Virus record (IMG/VR): IMGVR_UViG_3300024269_004845
Source of the DNA: a virus
Lineage: Duplodnaviria > Caudoviricetes
DNA length: 64,000 bases
Direction: 5' to 3' (one strand)
In this document: positions 30,058 through 43,688 of the stretch, in pieces
How positions within the stretch are numbered: the stretch's first letter is position 1
Layout: the number at the start of each line of letters is the position of its first letter
Program-made: the position numbers and the translations under genes
The notes under the pieces: generated by a model
The model's input: the letters and a program-made list of their open reading frames with translations, nothing else
What the model was told of the DNA's origin: nothing
The model's database searches: none

Positions 30058-30240
30058 GTGATTGCGTTGATTAATAGAATGAAATACGCCATTACAGGAG
30101 AAAACGGCGGGCCAACCGTTGAATTAATAGTTGCTATTTCTGTCGCATTAACGTTTGTAATTGCTCTTGGGAGTTTGGCAGCTACCGTTATTTCGTGGAT
30201 TGCTGGCGCCACTGGTGCAGTTTCATCCCTTCATGAATAA
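30058..30240 (+). CDS. Flp-type pilin
   Basis: Leader GENG|GPTVE with Glu+5, then a hydrophobic helix; about 60 aa. Confidence 0.7.
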   Translation: MIALINRMKYAITGENGGPTVELIVAISVALTFVIALGSLAATVISWIAGATGAVSSLHE

Positions 30241-30254
30241 TGGGGGTGGTGCAA

Positions 30255-30863
30255 ATGTTTAAAAAACTCAAGAATAATAACAACGGTAATATAGAAATAA
30301 CACGTGTAATTTGTTATTTTTACTTAATAATTTGCATCGCATTTGTACTTGATATAATTTTCGTAATCGGTCAAAATGTTGTAACTTCTTATGAGGCTGC
30401 ATATTACGCGGAAAAGATATCTATCCAGGGTGGGTTAGTCGGAGATAAAGCGTTTTATCCATCAATAGCTGAAGTAAAGAAAATGAATGGGGCTAATGCT
30501 TGTTATACTTACCAAAAGCCATGTGAAAATAGTTGCTTACCAAATGGAACGATAACTGAAAGAATATCGACAACACTTGGATATTTCGGAGTTGCGCCAA
30601 ATGAATGGGCTGGCTATTTACAAGGAGGGGGAGAAACCACAGTATTCCATTCCAAAATGAATCAGGCTACAGGTGGAGATAAAAGAAAGGTTTATGATTA
30701 TATGTCTACCGCAACCTTTATTATTAGTTCCGACTGGCAACCCATATTCGCTAAATATTTATGGGCTGAAGATTTTTACACAATTGAAAAGTATGTGCCG
30801 ATTGTTATTGAATATATTCCTCAAGTAAATCCAAATGATGATGCCTGCAAGAATCTTTATTGA
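30255..30863 (+). CDS. TadE-like minor pilin
   Basis: Basic leader KKLKNNNNG| then hydrophobic helix, AAYYA..IS..GG. Confidence 0.6.
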   Translation: MFKKLKNNNNGNIEITRVICYFYLIICIAFVLDIIFVIGQNVVTSYEAAYYAEKISIQGGLVGDKAFYPSIAEVKKMNGANACYTYQKPCENSCLPNGTITERISTTLGYFGVAPNEWAGYLQGGGETTVFHSKMNQATGGDKRKVYDYMSTATFIISSDWQPIFAKYLWAEDFYTIEKYVPIVIEYIPQVNPNDDACKNLY

Positions 30864-30878
30864 GGAGGTTGATATCAT

Positions 30879-31460
30879 ATGAATTTTTTCAATAAAATAA
30901 AAAACAATAAAGGTAGTGCTGAAAGTGCTATGTTTGTTTTTGGTCTTGCGATATTTGCGACTATAGTAGTGTTTTCAATGGATATATTTGGACTTACTTG
31001 GCAGCGTTATTTATCAACTAGAGAGCTTTCGAATATGTCGCGTTTATACGCTATTAGAGCAACGGACTTGTATATTGATGATTCCCAATCAGGTGTTCTG
31101 GACAGTATGATAACCACTCCAGACAAATCAGACTTGGGGAAAGAAATGGCAGATATCATGAAAATGATTGTCGCTCACGGGAAAATAGATAATGCAGTTT
31201 TGACCATAACAAAGGGTCCTGGGGGAGTTCAGTTATTAAGAATCACAGCTGATAGAAATTCCACTGATATAGTTGCAGCAGGATACGAACAAATAAAAGT
31301 TTTAGATTATGGTGATGATTTAATTGCTGAATTAAAAATAGAATATAATAATTCTACTTTTAAGGGCGTTGGAGCTCAAGAAAAATCAAAAAACTCATAT
31401 GTGATTCAAAACAAATTTGCATTTGAAGACTTTGCTCATGATGGAAACAATGTTGGATAA
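30879..31460 (+). CDS. TadE/F-like minor pilin
   Basis: KIKNNKG|SAE then hydrophobic helix, SRLYA. Confidence 0.6.
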   Translation: MNFFNKIKNNKGSAESAMFVFGLAIFATIVVFSMDIFGLTWQRYLSTRELSNMSRLYAIRATDLYIDDSQSGVLDSMITTPDKSDLGKEMADIMKMIVAHGKIDNAVLTITKGPGGVQLLRITADRNSTDIVAAGYEQIKVLDYGDDLIAELKIEYNNSTFKGVGAQEKSKNSYVIQNKFAFEDFAHDGNNVG

Positions 31461-31472
31461 GGAGGTATTGCT

Positions 31473-32030
31473 ATGATAAAAAAGTTAAAAAATAATAATC
31501 GTGGTGGTGCCGACCTCCAATTTGCAATTGCAACATTCTTATATATGTTTGTTGTCTGTGTTGGGTTATTGCTAGACTTTTGGTACGTTTCTTCTGCAAA
31601 AGTACATGTTTTAAAGACTGTAGAAGCTGCAGAATTATATTGTCTAGTTACTAATGCTCCTGAAAGTCATCACGATGCATCTGCAAAATACGAAAGTCTT
31701 TGGGAAATGAATTTAGCTGCTAACCAACAAGCTGCTTTGAATTGTGCTAAACCAGAGTTAGAAGCTCGTTTGGGTAATTTACCATATCTTAAACCTGGCG
31801 ATGAGGGTCTTGATATTCAGCATGTCTTTGGGTTAGGTAACACAATAGGACAAATGGGGATAAGTACTGAGATGAGATATCAAGTAAAAACAATGATTAG
31901 AAGTCCTCAACAATTATTTAACTTCATGAGACCTGACAACCTAGAATTAACGGCTGCAAGATGGGTTCCATTAAAGGTAACTTCTAAACTAGTACCTATG
32001 TTGGAAGACCAACATATTGCTGATTCTTAA
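31473..32030 (+). CDS. TadG-like minor pilin
   Basis: KKLKNNNRG|G then hydrophobic helix, GLLLD..K..L...EAA. Confidence 0.6.
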   Translation: MIKKLKNNNRGGADLQFAIATFLYMFVVCVGLLLDFWYVSSAKVHVLKTVEAAELYCLVTNAPESHHDASAKYESLWEMNLAANQQAALNCAKPELEARLGNLPYLKPGDEGLDIQHVFGLGNTIGQMGISTEMRYQVKTMIRSPQQLFNFMRPDNLELTAARWVPLKVTSKLVPMLEDQHIADS

Positions 32031-32071
32031 AAAAAATAATGGCTAGTCGATATTCGACTAGCCATTTTCTA

Positions 32072-32698
32072 TTATTCAATAATTAAAACTGACTTATTAT
32101 CAGGGATATAAACATACTTATATCCACAGCTCTTGTATATTAATCTGTCGGTTGTTTTATATCTTTTACCATTAATTAAATATTCAATATCTCCATTATA
32201 AACTCTTTCTGTGGCCTTACAACCAATAGCATTCACAACTTTAACTATTTCTTTTCTAAAAATTTTCTGGAGTTTTGAGATAAGAACATTTACATCTTTG
32301 TCTAAGTCAATCATGATGCTTTTTTCTTGAGTATAAACAGAATACCCAGAAATAATAGAAAGATAATTATAGTGTGGCATTTCTAAAACAACTAAATTGT
32401 TTTCAATGGTCTTTGCCTGTAAGAAATCAGTACTGTTTAAAATTTCTTCTTTTGTTTTTGTAGTCTTCATTCCATTTTTATACGTGATAGCATAATAGGA
32501 TAAGTCTTCTCCAATATATACAATTTCTTTAATATTATTATCAGATACTAAAATATTAGCAACATATTCACCCATGTCTACATTTCTCATAAAATATTGC
32601 TTTTTGTAATGTTTTGATATCTGTTCTATAAAATCAAAATTTCTAATAACGTATTTGGTAGATTTATACTTAAAATTTATCTTCACAAAAGGGTCCAT
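32072..32698 (-). CDS. Hypothetical protein
   Basis: ORF with an upstream TTGATT..TATTAT promoter-like site and a downstream hairpin. Confidence 0.5.
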   Translation of the reverse strand: MDPFVKINFKYKSTKYVIRNFDFIEQISKHYKKQYFMRNVDMGEYVANILVSDNNIKEIVYIGEDLSYYAITYKNGMKTTKTKEEILNSTDFLQAKTIENNLVVLEMPHYNYLSIISGYSVYTQEKSIMIDLDKDVNVLISKLQKIFRKEIVKVVNAIGCKATERVYNGDIEYLINGKRYKTTDRLIYKSCGYKYVYIPDNKSVLIIE

Positions 32699-32839: not shown

Positions 32840-34762
32840 TTATATTTTTTCGGTATATTTCTTCTGTTTGAAGTAACTGTTCTTTGTATCATAAACAGGG
32901 TTTCTGTTGTGGGCGATAATAAGAACCTTTTCTTCATCCATTCTACGAACTTCGTCTGGGGTAATTAACTCTCTTCGAGTACCAGATTTTTGTACGCTTT
33001 GGCCAGCAAAAATACTTGTAGCAATATCTTGGCCTGCTTGATTTTGTGTTGAGTAACTTTTTGTTTCAATTGTTGTTACACCTGCAAGGTCACTAACATA
33101 CTGCGCAGAGCTTCCAGTAAGACCAGAATAAATCATCTTGGTTTTTAAGTTATTCATAATATCATTTGCGTTTTCTTCGCCATAATTTCTCTTAAGCTGT
33201 TCTACGCCCTGAATACCAACGCTGATACCTATCTTACGGCTACGAGCAGTAGCAGTAACCGTAGCAATAGAAGGAATAACTCCAATGTTTGCAAATTCGT
33301 CGAGCATATATAGGATAGGCTGTCCTTCTTTATGTTCCATTGTCATTTCTAATAATTGAGTAAAGAAAACGGACATTAAAGGCATCATCATTGTGGCTTT
33401 AGATTCGGGAACACATACAAATAACGCAGTAGGTTTTTTTCTTAAAATTACTGGGTCAAATAATCTTTCAGTGTCTGGTACTTTTTCACCATCTTCGTTA
33501 TAAACGAGAGGTGGGGTAACAAATTTTGCAACTTTGGGGTCAGTAAATAACTGAACATTAGTTGTTAATACTGATTTAATAGAAGAAATAGTTTTTTCAC
33601 TTTCGCCAGCAGACTTAAAGATTAAGAATAACTTATAGGCATCTGGACACTGTTTAAACATAGCATCCATACTCTTTAACGTACCATTAAGAATGATATC
33701 AATAGCTTCAGGTATGCTTTGTGTTTTGCCATGATGTTTTACATATACGAAAGCAGCAGCTAGCAAAGGAATAGACATGTTAATCCATTCTGCACCACTA
33801 CTTGAACTGCCAGTAGAAAGTTCAACCGCTTTGTTACCGTTGGTAAGAATCAACTGTGCAATATTTCTTAGTTCTGTTGCATCATCAATAACTGCTAATG
33901 GGTTATAGAAAAATTCATTTCTTTCGGGTCTTAAAGGTTCAAGCTTTACAATATTATATCCTAAACTTTCAAGATATGGGCTGGTTAAATCATGCATTTC
34001 TCCTTTCGGGTCAGTTACAACTACAGAGTGCTTTCCATCTATGTCCAATAAATTAGGGATAAAGAAACTGGAAGATTTACCAGCACCAGTAGGACCTAAT
34101 ACCATTACGTGTTCGTATGATTTAGCTGCGCTTAATCTTACATTTTTAGAAATTGTAAAACCATCATCTCCCGTTAAGCCATTTAAATCTCTTACGGTAC
34201 CTTCTTTTGCTGTACCTTGGTCACCATATTTGGTTTTGCTTCTTTTAAATTTAGAACCTCTACCAGAGCCTCCACCAGAACCTATGCCTGCGAATACGCC
34301 GCCCAATGAGCTTCCAATATCTCCAAGCATATCATTCTTTGCAAGAATAACGACTGGTATAATCAATAGCATTATAAATATTAATCCTTGGAAAGCGGCT
34401 AAACCAGGGGTAAACTTAGATTCTCCCTCTGTATAATACAGCTCAACTCTTGCCATATTACCATTAACATCTTTTACGAGACCTCTAACTGCGCCATCTA
34501 CTTTTTTATGCGACACGATAGGTCTGTCTCCAACGCCTGTTGAAACATATATTTTATCTCCAATATCTACTTTCTTATCTGCCTGGGATATATCAATATC
34601 TTTATTAATAATTGCTGCGGTTTGCCCAGAAGATAAAACCATCTCTACATTTCCCTTACCTAAAGAAAGGATGTTTGGCAAGGCAAAAGTTATTAAAAGA
34701 GCTAATATTATATATCCAACAATCATTGCGAGCGTGCCATATTTTTTGAAATTATCACCCAT
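32840..34762 (-). CDS. virD4: VirD4/TraG type IV coupling protein
   Basis: Two N-terminal TMs, HVMVLGPTGAGKS..IPNLL, VTDPKGE, LDEFANIG, RELITPDEVRRM. Confidence 0.92.
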   Translation of the reverse strand: MGDNFKKYGTLAMIVGYIILALLITFALPNILSLGKGNVEMVLSSGQTAAIINKDIDISQADKKVDIGDKIYVSTGVGDRPIVSHKKVDGAVRGLVKDVNGNMARVELYYTEGESKFTPGLAAFQGLIFIMLLIIPVVILAKNDMLGDIGSSLGGVFAGIGSGGGSGRGSKFKRSKTKYGDQGTAKEGTVRDLNGLTGDDGFTISKNVRLSAAKSYEHVMVLGPTGAGKSSSFFIPNLLDIDGKHSVVVTDPKGEMHDLTSPYLESLGYNIVKLEPLRPERNEFFYNPLAVIDDATELRNIAQLILTNGNKAVELSTGSSSSGAEWINMSIPLLAAAFVYVKHHGKTQSIPEAIDIILNGTLKSMDAMFKQCPDAYKLFLIFKSAGESEKTISSIKSVLTTNVQLFTDPKVAKFVTPPLVYNEDGEKVPDTERLFDPVILRKKPTALFVCVPESKATMMMPLMSVFFTQLLEMTMEHKEGQPILYMLDEFANIGVIPSIATVTATARSRKIGISVGIQGVEQLKRNYGEENANDIMNNLKTKMIYSGLTGSSAQYVSDLAGVTTIETKSYSTQNQAGQDIATSIFAGQSVQKSGTRRELITPDEVRRMDEEKVLIIAHNRNPVYDTKNSYFKQKKYTEKI

Positions 34763-34934
34763 AGATATCCTCCTTTTTTGTCAATTTTAAATAAAAAATA
34801 AATCAAATAGTAGATATAATATCATATATAATTATCTCTCAAATTATTATAAATAAAAGATTTAAGATAAAAACAAAGCTCTTGTTTATTTAAGACAAGA
34901 ACTTTTATGTGTAAAAAAATATATTATAAAAAAA

Positions 34935-35172
34935 CAAAAAAAGAGGTTGCAAGCGTTAACCTGCAACCAAAATTGATTTCTGTCTCCAAATTACGATTTA
35001 CGATATATATTTACACGGGTTAATACACTTCCTTATTGTCCCATGGAAGCGGAGCTGGCCAACCCTATTAGGCTTCAGCTCGAAATTAACAGGATGCTCC
35101 AGTCGGTAATCCTGATTATCTTTGGAGTGAAATGGTAAGAAACGGAAAATCAAAATCCTAGCCATTTCTTGT
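34935..35172 (-). ncRNA. Candidate structured non-coding RNA (~235 nt), family not recognised
   Basis: No ORF in the track here; five stems, G-U pairs valid only on the minus strand, ends in a hairpin plus U tract. Confidence 0.55.
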
Positions 35173-35280
35173 ATAGATAATATATATTATGTTTTTTATA
35201 TTCGGAATATTCCATTTTAGACAAAAATTTTTATTAAAAATAAAAAAACATGGTCGAACAAAAGTCCAACCATGTTTCTG

Positions 35281-37071
35281 TTAGCTTTTATAATATTTAT
35301 TGCCAAGTACTCCAGACTTTTTGACAATTACATTATCATCTGCTAGCTTTTCTAATTCTATAATTAGCTCTGAAGGCTTATAAATATGGCCTAACATCGC
35401 TCGTACTTTATCAACTACTTCATCTATCTTTACTTCATCAACTGGCAAAGTTCTAATTAAAGCCTTTTGCAAAGAGGTTAATTCAATAACTGATAGTTCG
35501 TCAAATGGGTTTGATTTTGCTTTGACATCTGTTACATTATATCTAATTAACACACTTAGAGTTTTCCCATAGATACTACTAGAAATGAATGATTCACCAG
35601 AATTGATATATGGCAAGCGTTCGATTTCTTCCTGTGATAAGTCAGTTTCTTTTTGAATAGACAACAAATCTTCTTTTATGCTAAGTTTAAAAATAAACTT
35701 CGTTGACATTTGAGCAACCACTGTTTCGTCTAGTAATGATGGACGTTGAGTTGCCATAATCTCAAATACCCCATATTTTCTACCTTCTTGAGCAATTGTT
35801 CTTAGTATAGTTTTTATTGGGGATTTGCTTTCATTTTTTGGACAGAAGATATGTGCTTCATCCATGGCAATGACAAACGGCAAAAAAGGTTCTCTCATTA
35901 TTCCAGAATCTTTTGAATCTATATAGTCTTTTCTTAAAAGATATAGTTTAGAAATTAAATAAGAGCCAACAATGTTAAGAGATTTCATTTCTCCTCTTAA
36001 AACACATGTTTGCTTTCTCGATAAAGCATTTTTTAAATCGGTTATATCTTTATTAAAAATCCCAGTTGAATTAATAGCATTAATTCTCCAAGAAATACCA
36101 ATTAAAGTTGTAGATGTTGGGATTATATTTTTATACTTATCCCAAAGGTCTTTTTCTGTGGGGGACATTGATTTGTCATCTAATGTTCCTTGTTCTAGTT
36201 GGCTTTTAAAATCAATCAGTGTTTTTATATTATTTGTTAAATTAACATATGTAGTTCCTTTTCTATGTAACTCTCGTAACAAATTTTCCATTGGTCCAGA
36301 AAGTTCACCCGAAAATCCCATAATTTTAATTAGTTCATCAGTGGTTAGCTCTGAAAAATCTATACCAACATTGTTACCAATTGTAAAAATTTGGAACTTT
36401 TTAGAATAATCTTTTTGGAGCTCTTTGGGGATATCGGTACGAGGAGTTGAAAAATTCATCTCCATATGTGGGTCGAATAAGATTGTTGGGATATTTTTGT
36501 TCATCATTTCCTCTGCAATAACTTTTAGTGCAAAAGTTTTGCCCGAGCCAGAACCTCCAAATAACCCAATATGAGGAGCTTCGCTCATTTTTTTATAATC
36601 AAATAATAATGGTACAGACGTTTGATTTAGCATTTGGTTGTTTTTTCTAACCATGAAAAGATTTTTATGGTTGTCTGGTACCGTATTCATAAATATATCT
36701 GTGCCATTGATTTCTCCTAATACAAAGCTATCTTCGATATTTTGTTTTACTAGGAATGGCTTTATTTTTTCAAACGTGGGTAATTTAACTAACGACCCAG
36801 ATTTGACTGGTTTTTTTATATAGTTTTCTACTTTTGCAGTTGCTATATAGATATTTTTTTCGTCTTTGAAGAAAAATTCTATATCTGGATATAAATCTCT
36901 CTCGGTCGCTTTTACGGTATCTATAGATAAATTTTCACTCTTAATAATTCTACAAACAGGGTTGTTATTGTCTGCATCCTCTATTTCGTAAAAATTATCT
37001 ATTTGAAATGGTTCATCCGTAGTTGCAAGTGTTACTATAAATGGGTTTGTTTTACCAACTATTCTTATCAA
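35281..37071 (-). CDS. HerA family ATPase/DNA translocase
   Basis: HAS-barrel-like N-terminus, HIGLFGGSGSGKT, MDEAH, QEGRKYG, ATQRP. Confidence 0.9.
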   Translation of the reverse strand: MIRIVGKTNPFIVTLATTDEPFQIDNFYEIEDADNNNPVCRIIKSENLSIDTVKATERDLYPDIEFFFKDEKNIYIATAKVENYIKKPVKSGSLVKLPTFEKIKPFLVKQNIEDSFVLGEINGTDIFMNTVPDNHKNLFMVRKNNQMLNQTSVPLLFDYKKMSEAPHIGLFGGSGSGKTFALKVIAEEMMNKNIPTILFDPHMEMNFSTPRTDIPKELQKDYSKKFQIFTIGNNVGIDFSELTTDELIKIMGFSGELSGPMENLLRELHRKGTTYVNLTNNIKTLIDFKSQLEQGTLDDKSMSPTEKDLWDKYKNIIPTSTTLIGISWRINAINSTGIFNKDITDLKNALSRKQTCVLRGEMKSLNIVGSYLISKLYLLRKDYIDSKDSGIMREPFLPFVIAMDEAHIFCPKNESKSPIKTILRTIAQEGRKYGVFEIMATQRPSLLDETVVAQMSTKFIFKLSIKEDLLSIQKETDLSQEEIERLPYINSGESFISSSIYGKTLSVLIRYNVTDVKAKSNPFDELSVIELTSLQKALIRTLPVDEVKIDEVVDKVRAMLGHIYKPSELIIELEKLADDNVIVKKSGVLGNKYYKS

Positions 37072-41095: not shown

Positions 41096-41615
41096 TTCGA
41101 ATAACCTCCTTTTAAAAATTTTTGATATTGTTTTTATATTGTAATATCTGTCAAATTGAGATATTACATAATTTGGTTTTATAGGAGATTATCCGAAAAA
41201 CTTAAAATCTCCAAAAATCAAATTATATAATATGATATTAATCATTTTTTAATTTTATAACTAAAATGTGCTTACTAGAACATTATTGTTATATTTTTTT
41301 TAGAATCAATTTCAATCATCATTTTCATATTTAATTTCATTTGGTTTGAAACAAATATTACAATTGACAATTTCTCATTGTCTTATATATCATATTTTAA
41401 TCTTTCTTTAATTTATTATCAAAAAGTGTTTTACAGAATAAAAAATGTTTTTACATTTTTTTCTAACGTCTGAAATCTTTTATTGGTGTCCTTTTCCTTA
41501 TATTTATATAAATAAAAACATATTATTTAATATGTTTTGTAAGTTCCAATTATCGCTTATATCACAGGATACACGTCCTAAAAGAAAAGGAGGTGTCCCG
41601 TTAACGGGAACTAAT

Positions 41616-43688
41616 ATGCAAATTAACGAAATTAGAGAAAAAATTATTGATACTCTTTATACATCGCAGCCTACTGCGATGAAATCTTTGGCTAGAAAAA
41701 TTGAGCTTACTAAAGAAGATTATAAACCATTTCGTATTGTTCTAAATAATTTGGAGAAAACAAATTTGGTGGATAACACTAACGGTAAATATGCTTTTCC
41801 TTCAAATTTTAACATTGGATACTTACAAACATTTAAGAAAAGCGAAAATTATATCTTCTTTAAGAATAAAAAATATCAAGTGGTTGAAGATGTTACTAAT
41901 AGTGCCATTCATGGCGATAAAGTGATTTTTGAAGTTGTTGATAGATATTTACAGACTGTAAGAATTATATCTACAATAAAAAGAAAAAGCACAAAGGTTG
42001 CTGGAATCTATGTTGAATATAATGGTATCGGCTTCGTAGTTCCTGACAATGATAGGTTGAATGTTGATATATATGTGCAAAGAAATAATATTAAGCCAAA
42101 TCTTTATGATAGGGTATTGGTTAAAATCGATGAATATAAAGTTTTCGGCAAGCCTGAAGGGGTTATCGAAAAAAAACTATTTGAAGATTTAAATAAAGAA
42201 GAATCGGCTCTTGAACGTGTTTTATCAAAATATGATATTCCAGCAGAATTTCCAAATGATGTTGTGAAAAAAGCAATCTTGTTAAATGTTCCAGTTAAGA
42301 ATAACATGATAACAGAAAGAGTTGATTTAAGAGATGAAAACATCTTTACTATTGATGGTAAAGACGCTCGTGACTTTGACGATGCTATTTCTATAAAAAA
42401 GACAGAATTCGGATATGAACTTGGTGTTTATATTGCTGATGTATCTTATTATGTACAAGAAAATAGTGTTATAGATAAGTGTGCATTTGAAAGAGGCACT
42501 AGTTATTATTTAGATGATTATGTCGTCCCAATGCTCCCAGTTGCACTATCTAATGGCGTGTGCAGTTTAAATGAGGGAGAAGATAAATTAGTAATTGGTT
42601 TAAAAATAATTTTTGACAATTATGGAAAGATTTTGAATCATGAATTGTTTGAAGCGGTTATATGTTCTAAAAAACGCTTTACATATGAAGAAATAAATGA
42701 CTATCTTAATGGCAAAAATCCAAGATTTAAAGATGATAATCGCTTATTATTCGACGATTTAATGGCTGGTTTTGAATTGGCAGAATTATTAAATAAAAAG
42801 CGTAGTAATAATGGATGTATTGATTTTGAATTTGGTGAGCTTACTTTTAAAAGAAATGATGACAAAAAAATCATTGATTTTGGGACATATGAAAGGGGTC
42901 CAGCAAATGATTTAATTGAAGAGTTTATGATAGTTGCTAATGAAACTATTGCTGAAATATTTGCTGGGTTGGGGCATCCATTTATATATAGAACTCATGG
43001 GGTTCCGTTCAGCGAAAAACTGCAAAATTTTGTTGATATTTGCAAAGAAAACAATATTGATTGCTCAATGCTCGATATAAATAATCCTACTTCTAAACAA
43101 TTGAAAGAACTAATATCCAACATTGAAGATTCTAATCTAAAAAAGAGTATTAATATGAACTTAATTACTACTATGAAACAAGCTCGTTATACAAATGAGT
43201 TTGATGGGCATTTTGGGTTAGCATCTCAATATTACTGTCACTTCACGTCTCCCATTCGTAGATATCCTGACTTATTTATTCATAGGCTAGTTAAAAAATA
43301 CATCCGTAAAAAACTTAACAATGATGTTACTAAAGAGCTTTATGAAAAAATGAGTGAAAAGGTCGCTAAACATTGTTGTTATACCGAGCGTAATGCAGAT
43401 AGAGCAGAAGAGGAATTGAATAGAATTCAGGCTATGCAATATATGGCTGATAATCCTGAAAGAGAATATGAAGCTTTAATATATGGGATTAACAGAAATG
43501 GGTTATTGATTCTCGTCAATGATGTTGTTTCTGGATTTATTCGTGCTAAAAATGATAATGAAGATGGATTAGCATCATCCATCATTATAAATGATATCAC
43601 TTATAAGATTGGCGATAAAATTAATGTTTCTTTTAAAGAGTATGATGTTAAAAACTCGAAATTAATTTTTGACCCATTGGAGGGATAA
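41616..43688 (+). CDS. rnr: Ribonuclease R
   Basis: FTIDGKDARDFDDAIS, LIEEFMIVANE, HFTSPIRRYPDL. Start moved to ATG 41616. Confidence 0.92.
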   Translation: MQINEIREKIIDTLYTSQPTAMKSLARKIELTKEDYKPFRIVLNNLEKTNLVDNTNGKYAFPSNFNIGYLQTFKKSENYIFFKNKKYQVVEDVTNSAIHGDKVIFEVVDRYLQTVRIISTIKRKSTKVAGIYVEYNGIGFVVPDNDRLNVDIYVQRNNIKPNLYDRVLVKIDEYKVFGKPEGVIEKKLFEDLNKEESALERVLSKYDIPAEFPNDVVKKAILLNVPVKNNMITERVDLRDENIFTIDGKDARDFDDAISIKKTEFGYELGVYIADVSYYVQENSVIDKCAFERGTSYYLDDYVVPMLPVALSNGVCSLNEGEDKLVIGLKIIFDNYGKILNHELFEAVICSKKRFTYEEINDYLNGKNPRFKDDNRLLFDDLMAGFELAELLNKKRSNNGCIDFEFGELTFKRNDDKKIIDFGTYERGPANDLIEEFMIVANETIAEIFAGLGHPFIYRTHGVPFSEKLQNFVDICKENNIDCSMLDINNPTSKQLKELISNIEDSNLKKSINMNLITTMKQARYTNEFDGHFGLASQYYCHFTSPIRRYPDLFIHRLVKKYIRKKLNNDVTKELYEKMSEKVAKHCCYTERNADRAEEELNRIQAMQYMADNPEREYEALIYGINRNGLLILVNDVVSGFIRAKNDNEDGLASSIIINDITYKIGDKINVSFKEYDVKNSKLIFDPLEG

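Follow-up and report, generated by a model that had tools for sequence, protein, structure and literature searches.

The spacer between a HerA-like gene and a gene for a VirD4/TraG-type coupling protein in the window (the whole stretch of 64,000 nucleotides that was analysed) raises the question whether a folded element lies there and, if so, whether it acts as an RNA, as single-stranded DNA or as a control region of virD4. The first-pass annotation had described a multi-stem structure at this site. We find a structured RNA of ~230 nt on the minus strand, from 35172 to 34935, between the two genes. Its surroundings are as follows.

35281-37071, minus strand: HerA-like gene (HerA/DUF87 assignment), upstream of the RNA
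35279-35244, minus strand: intrinsic terminator of herA, a 16-pair stem with a T-run
34935-35172, minus strand: type-1 structured RNA, extending from its conserved 5′ start through the U-run (282 bits with a covariance model)
32840-34762, minus strand: gene for the VirD4/TraG-type coupling protein, downstream of the RNA (Pfam T4SS-DNA_transf 5e-65, TraG-D_C, TrwB_AAD_bind)
32038-32066, both strands: bidirectional terminator that closes the virD4 unit, with a perfectly palindromic hairpin of 13 bp and a T-run on either strand

The G+C content of the RNA region is 0.36-0.45 against 0.17-0.18 in the flanks, which agrees with the earlier description of a GC island in AT-rich surroundings, and the terminator of herA from which that description had measured its position was found at 35279-35244. 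The virD4 unit consists of only two genes, virD4 and a gene for a protein of 208 aa, and ends at 32066-32038. The terminator at this point separates the unit from three convergent genes of ~190 aa with unknown function. Around the end of the unit, four conserved genes of ~185-208 aa (30240-32698) keep their positions in all related loci; they gave no Pfam, NCBIfam or PHROG match, and among the small proteins near the RNA none of these databases returned a family hinting at an RNA-binding partner. A perfect 10-bp palindrome, GGAATATTCC, is present on the minus strand at 35204-35213, ~35-45 nt before the RNA begins. Two related loci (L001 and L003) have it half-conserved, and it could be an operator.

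The best reading of the carrier is a large conjugative, plasmid-like element (megaplasmid-like) of uncultivated gut Firmicutes. The clade of RNA-carrying elements also encodes Replic_Relax, RecA, RecD2, topoisomerase III, an RNase R-like enzyme and SecY. In the window the RNase R/RNase II-type exoribonuclease is full-length (41445-43688, plus strand; RNB domain 3e-101, plus cold-shock and OB domains) and is encoded 6 kb from the RNA, an unusual cargo.

Gut metagenome assemblies contain many relatives of the VirD4 protein; the VirD4 cluster of P0010 alone occurs on at least 33 contigs. Where VirD4 is 71-95% identical, herA is followed by a spacer of ~400-520 nt and then by virD4. Clear homologues of the RNA were found in the spacers of L001 (VirD4 95% identical) and L003-L006 (76%), where the rest of the spacer is barely alignable; these loci come from pig-gut and other assemblies. 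A covariance model made from these type-1 homologues recovers them at 238-282 bits (L001 2594-2829; L003 2662-2900). With filters off, the model detected a single copy in the window, and all weaker matches were gene-end terminators.

No known RNA class could be recognized in the element, as had been stated at first reading. At the gathering score Rfam 15 (4227 families) gave no match in the whole window, a search at E up to 10 gave inside the element one 11.8-bit chance match only, and six related loci gave no match at the RNA position. ARAGORN detected no tRNA or tmRNA genes in the window, and Fremin and Bhatt (2021) make no mention of conjugation-linked motifs. The region does contain a 55-aa open reading frame in the window, but a small-protein reading was rejected because indels shorten the frame to 4 codons in L001 and 14 in L003; it has no Pfam match, and no reading frame on either strand is common to these two loci and the window. 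The element is non-coding. A type I or type III toxin-antitoxin RNA was also rejected, as there is no conserved small reading frame and no repeat unit in the sequence or the fold.

Unguided minimum-energy folding of the minus strand as RNA gave -65.6 kcal/mol (z -2.8), a value equalled by 1 of 200 shuffled sequences, whereas the fold of the plus strand was weaker (z -1.7). The predicted structure begins with a 5′ hairpin, continues with three hairpins enclosed by a closing stem, and finishes in a 10-bp terminator hairpin followed by a U-run. This is the architecture of the first-pass annotation, and each of the helices listed there was present at its given position. Several G-U pairs are possible on the minus strand only, in agreement with the earlier remark on wobble pairs. 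The parts of the RNA are listed below together with the changes observed in its homologues.

35129-35168, minus strand: 5′ region, in which 35168-35162 can pair with 35135-35129
35133-35129 with 34980-34976, minus strand: P2a, the outer part of the closing helix
35127-35121 with 34990-34984, minus strand: P2b of the closing helix, with one double change in L003 and three in L001, all pairs kept
35114-35090, minus strand: hairpin P3, a 6-bp stem with an invariant 13-nt loop (35108-35096) and three double compensatory changes
35081-35052, minus strand: hairpin P4, an outer 6-bp and an inner 3-4-bp stem; L003 has four double changes, L001 a single disruptive one
35051-35026, minus strand: hairpin P5, a 7-bp stem with an invariant 12-nt loop (35044-35033) and two double compensatory changes
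35001-35019, minus strand: conserved single-stranded stretch comprising a possible pseudoknot partner (35019-35015) and the AUAUAUAUCG motif (35010-35001)
34968-34945, with the U-run to 34935, minus strand: terminator of the RNA, a 10-bp stem with a 4-nt loop, showing one double and one one-sided compensatory change in L003

The type-1 comparison comprises three distinct sequences, those of the window, L001 and L003. For counting double changes the helices were aligned by hand, because both MAFFT and the covariance model shift two strands by one or two columns. After this registration all helices pair fully in the window and L003, and L001 loses the innermost pair of P4. Across P2b, P3, P4, P5 and the terminator these three sequences show 14 double compensatory changes and one disruptive change (L001, P4), besides one-sided G-U changes; between the window and L003, all 11 changed pairs are still standard pairs. 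The uncorrected, partly misregistered alignment gave 6 pairs changed on both sides versus 0-2 when the partners were slid, and a covariation score of 0.199 versus at most 0.085 in the slid controls. The invariant loops of P3 and P5 and several junction strands are identical in the three sequences.

Since the homologues keep every helix through compensatory changes, the fold is more than chance; collecting homologues and examining covariation, as the first-pass annotation had proposed, supported the structure. The RNA structure is real and under selection: a closing helix of 12 bp in two parts encloses ~130 nt, which form a junction with three hairpins. The G+C content, which is like that of coding DNA, and the 55-aa reading frame of the window would be in keeping with a fold arisen by chance or with a protein gene that has decayed. 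The compensatory changes in every helix, and a reading frame that is broken by indels in relatives and matches no Pfam family, make this explanation extremely improbable.

A second type of the RNA occupies the same position in L007-L009, L214 and L310 (VirD4 71-73% identical), represented by three distinct sequences. Its central domain is different from that of type 1. The two types share the 5′ start AAAAUGGCAGGA, the two-part closing helix, an AAAUCA segment and the terminator with its U-run, and in both a single-stranded ...GUGU...AUAUCG stretch precedes the 3′ closing strand. The AUAUAUAUCG motif is common to type 2 and the other variants as well. The type-1 model detects type 2 weakly (E about 1e-4). 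In the type-2 consensus 94.7% of the cells are paired, with 5 double changes versus 0-1 in slid controls. In L310, a 243-aa reading frame without a Pfam family (327-1058) is inserted between herA and the type-2 RNA, and the RNA still adjoins virD4.

Two details of the first description are weaker than the rest. The 5′ strand is conserved in sequence in all variants, but the 5′ hairpin itself is not: the version formed with 35144-35136 exists only in the window and L001, whereas the partner that had been named as competing, 35135-35129, is conserved. This 5′ pairing and P2a are mutually exclusive because both use 35133-35129. The pseudoknot proposed between 35044-35040 and 35019-35015 can be drawn in all three type-1 sequences, without covariation within the type; one one-sided C to U change in L003 keeps the pairing as G-U. 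At the equivalent place of type 2, the loop and downstream segments could pair with G and C swapped, which would be suggestive support only: the loop geometry there is unlike that of type 1, and a nested helix that competes with the pseudoknot has a compensatory change of its own. A type-1 pseudoknot is possible.

Further diverged versions of the RNA were found in L002, L309 and L011. The L002 variant (1-320; VirD4 80% identical) is expanded and much more GC-rich, with a fold of -107 kcal/mol (z -3.5). It retains the 3′ module and the terminator, and its 5′ end is lost at the contig end. The L309 variant is cut by the contig end. In L011 a closing stem surrounds three hairpins (z -3.6). Contigs ending within or just downstream of the RNA locus (L002 1-486, L308 1-97, L309 1-268 and L311 1-122) account for 4 of ~14 independent metagenome contigs with this virD4. 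Such ends fit assembly breaks caused by strain-level divergence of the RNA between conserved flanking genes; alternatively, they may mark a repeat or a site of rearrangement.

Beyond these loci the RNA was not detected. Where VirD4 is 54-68% identical, the spacer upstream of virD4 is ~120-170 nt and holds no such RNA. In one relative with VirD4 51% identical (the P0062 locus) the gap between herA and virD4 is ~1070 nt, which leaves room for a larger RNA or an extra small gene. A strict pattern of the two invariant loops gave no matches in JGI metagenomes, GTDB species genomes or IMG/VR. Patterns of a single loop of 14-15 nt gave at least 120 and 80 matches in IMG/VR; these were not accepted as homologues, because the second loop was absent from every fetched locus, and we therefore read them as chance. 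Covariance models R1 and R2 run over 54 loci found no further members, VirD4-guided retrieval of loci from JGI metagenomes and IMG/VR added the RNA in L214 only, and the region had no blastn match among 72,556 plasmids or 50,697 phages. A search of the window with the 5′ motif was swamped by matches resembling ribosome binding sites. The absence of the RNA at distant VirD4 loci and the lack of matches to the two-loop pattern therefore point to a narrow family, belonging to one clade of uncultivated, very large plasmid-like elements. The family is modular: its members keep the 5′ start, the closing helices, the single-stranded 3′ motif and the terminator, and the central domain is remodelled between close relatives. 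A kept scaffold with a remodelled centre suggests that the RNA may serve element-specific recognition.

The ends of the RNA and the region up to virD4 are marked by three further features.

35179-35191, minus strand: promoter-like -10 region with CATAAT (35191-35186) and TATATT (35184-35179)
34869-34902, minus strand: second hairpin with a T-run after the RNA, non-homologous between loci, giving a tandem terminator-like arrangement
34814-34850, minus strand: promoter-like block before virD4, AT-rich, with TTGAGA, a 17-nt distance and a -10-like hexamer with TG upstream

The CATAAT lies where it had first been noted, and this -10 region would place the 5′ end of the RNA near 35172-35179. A -10-like hexamer is found 12-13 nt before a conserved AUGG in all seven variants. 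The promoter has no good -35 element, is weak by consensus and was missed by a sigma-70 scan. At the other side, the RNA ends in the hairpin at 34968-34945 followed by the U-run, as had been described. Such a hairpin and U-run end the variants; most have a G+C-rich hairpin followed by 7-9 T/U, and in L011 the U-run is short. From this terminator to the start codon of virD4 the distance is 100-180 nt.

Whether the conserved structure acts as RNA or as single-stranded DNA is not decided by folding energy, since with ssDNA parameters both strands fold into similar architectures (z -2.5 and -2.1). Weinberg et al. (2017) also state that sequence analysis cannot reliably separate ssDNA from RNA motifs (PMC5737381). 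The ssDNA explanation is that the element is a folded part of the transferred or lagging strand, namely a single-strand origin, a priming site or part of oriT. Conjugative and rolling-circle elements carry strand-specific folded ssDNA signals of this kind, the architecture is predicted with DNA parameters too (z -2.5), and the element has genes for both a Replic_Relax protein and a coupling protein. Plasmid motifs of similar size are listed by Weinberg et al. (PMC5737381), among them the orphans ARRPOF, GEBRO and PAGEV, which are 220-350 nt long, supported by covariation and of unknown function. Like the element described here they are conserved structures on plasmid-type DNA for which the choice between RNA and ssDNA is unsettled. 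They differ from it in sequence and structure (the Rfam scan matched none of them), are associated with replication regions rather than with a coupling protein gene, and are without the modular two-type architecture.

Several observations favour RNA. The terminal hairpin with its U-run has the orientation of a terminator and shows compensatory changes, with 7-9 T after a G+C-rich hairpin in most variants, the -10-like hexamer keeps its distance to AUGG in all variants, and the stems covary freely; G-U pairs on one strand only argue for RNA rather than duplex DNA. Single-strand origins of the ssoA/ssoT type, known from rolling-circle plasmids and integrative and conjugative elements (ICEs), are strand-specific folded elements of ~150-300 nt with long imperfect hairpins and conserved RS-B/CS-6 sequences that act as ssDNA promoters. 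In the RNA described here, by contrast, the stems covary freely, the loops are conserved and the end is a terminator with a U-run. Freely covarying stems cannot encode the conserved -35 and -10 hexamers of an ssDNA promoter. An ssoA-type origin was rejected because the plus-strand near-match to CS-6 in the terminator loop changes in L003 and the stems covary. Furthermore, the Replic_Relax gene is 20 kb away from the RNA, and as ssDNA both strands fold about equally well. We consider a function as single-stranded DNA unlikely.

The first-pass annotation had offered either a new non-coding RNA or an attenuator of virD4. The former part stands, the element being an uncatalogued, covarying, non-coding RNA; attenuator control of virD4 was not borne out. 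A riboswitch or attenuator of the classical kind would refold in response to a ligand or factor and thereby choose between terminator and antiterminator. The complex junction with its invariant unpaired nucleotides does resemble an aptamer, the element lies upstream of virD4 in the same orientation, and the 5′ and 3′ segments compete for 35133-35129. However, no conserved sequence pairs with either arm of the terminator, and the only 4-bp candidate in the window is lost in L003. The terminator is 100-180 nt away from the start codon, and a second hairpin with a T-run follows the RNA in four loci (window, L001, L003 and L309). The promoter-like block before virD4 is conserved in the window, L001, L003, L007, L214, L308, L310 and L311, thus in type-1 and type-2 loci (as TTGAnn), and is the only other piece of the spacer that can be aligned across both RNA types. 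None of the Rfam riboswitches matched. The lack of an alternative pairing, the second hairpin with its T-run and the virD4 promoter-like block therefore make a classical attenuator very unlikely, and the RNA is probably not a switch for virD4.

The evidence for RNA over DNA and that against an attenuator lead to the reading we prefer, a stand-alone, terminator-ended gene for a structured small RNA that acts in trans, independently of virD4 transcription. We consider this reading about evenly balanced between being right and being wrong. The terminator and the lack of coding potential agree with it, and as a promoter there is the conserved -10-like hexamer only. Against it count the small number of distinct sequences (three per type), the weak promoter and the searches that found no target or partner. 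The position of the RNA, adjoining virD4 and co-oriented with it, also counts against it, as this is expected of a cis-acting element too. The RNA is always found directly upstream of virD4 in this orientation, even in L310 with its extra reading frame after herA.

The main rival reading is a cis-acting RNA that works by processive antitermination. Processive antiterminators of the conAn, canT, EAR and put kinds act in cis and let transcription pass terminators further downstream, heterologous ones included. In such a mechanism the nascent leader RNA, alone or with a protein of the element, would make RNA polymerase resistant to terminators, read-through would express virD4 and the gene for the 208-aa protein, and unmodified polymerase would make the short RNA only. 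Two precedents exist in Gram-positive conjugative elements, conAn2 of pLS20 (PMC8191782) and canT of Tn916 (PMC11658703), both complex structured RNAs upstream of terminators and conjugation genes. conAn2 is the RNA of the bipartite conAn processive antitermination system; it comes immediately after conAn1 (PF17362), where an operon of >30 kb begins, is not terminator-ended, has a 20-bp long-range inverted repeat around 238 nt with a GC-rich core, and is followed by the internal promoter P29 (PMC8191782). Both conAn2 and the RNA described here are structured RNAs of a few hundred nt located upstream of conjugation genes on a conjugative element of Gram-positive type, and both have a long-range closing helix, a GC-richer core with stem-loops and an internal promoter (a promoter-like block in the window) afterwards. 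The resemblance in the closing helix (20 bp around 238 nt versus 12 bp in two parts around ~130 nt) is a resemblance only. The two RNAs have no sequence similarity, and the RNA of the window follows a HerA-like gene, ends in a strong terminator and precedes a two-gene unit.

The complex RNA canT acts in cis and is orientation-specific. It lies between a promoter and a terminator, and the conjugation genes, including the gene for the coupling protein, follow this terminator; it needs 341-452 nt, has no consensus structure that has been defined, and in the excised ICE acts across the junction of the circle (PMC11658703). The element shares with canT a complex RNA before a terminator, upstream of a coupling protein gene. 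There is no detectable homology to canT, and antitermination by the RNA of the window is hypothetical.

Antitermination would further agree with terminators that have no alternative-pairing switch, as expected if the bypass works via the polymerase, and with the constant position and orientation of the RNA before virD4. On the other hand, known systems serve long operons with many internal terminators, whereas the unit downstream of the RNA has two genes and ends at 32066-32038. No ConAn1-type protein (PF17362) was found among the 18 window proteins scanned, the upstream gene is HerA-like, the RNA has no sequence similarity to any plasmid record, and virD4 has its own conserved promoter-like block. 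Taken with the precedents, these points make cis-acting antitermination a possible but doubtful explanation.

For the stand-alone small RNA we infer the ends of the transcript, the action in trans and the existence of a partner. Transcription would start ~6-13 nt upstream of the conserved AUGG from the AT-rich -10-like promoter and would stop at an unconditional intrinsic terminator, releasing a free RNA of ~230 nt. The invariant loops and junction strands may be contact surfaces for a protein or another RNA, displayed on the covarying stems. If they are, the RNA would be a trans-acting regulator or a ribonucleoprotein component whose action does not depend on transcription of virD4. Exact and near complements of the two invariant loops occurred in the window at chance level, and duplexes formed with 63 translation-start regions or with the virD4 leader had energies not above those of shuffled controls.

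A bolder idea is that the RNA is a modular specificity factor in which the conserved scaffold presents a swappable central domain as a lineage-specific recognition code. We regard this as quite unlikely. Variants of the idea are that the RNA may be a new ribozyme or may represent a new class of polymerase-modifying RNA.

With this RNA, the poorly known, very large conjugative plasmid-like elements of animal guts gain a well-supported orphan RNA family that Rfam lacks. Because of its fixed position before the coupling protein gene, the RNA offers a concrete case in which to test how common RNA-based control of conjugation genes is; such control was recently found in pLS20 and Tn916. For a bacterial small RNA it is unusual to evolve by remodelling of the core within a conserved scaffold, and the variants provide natural material for structure-function work. 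If the RNA were a modular specificity factor, it might, for example, license the element's own coupling protein or DNA-processing machinery, or separate self from related co-resident elements, and would be an RNA-level determinant of self and non-self in conjugation.
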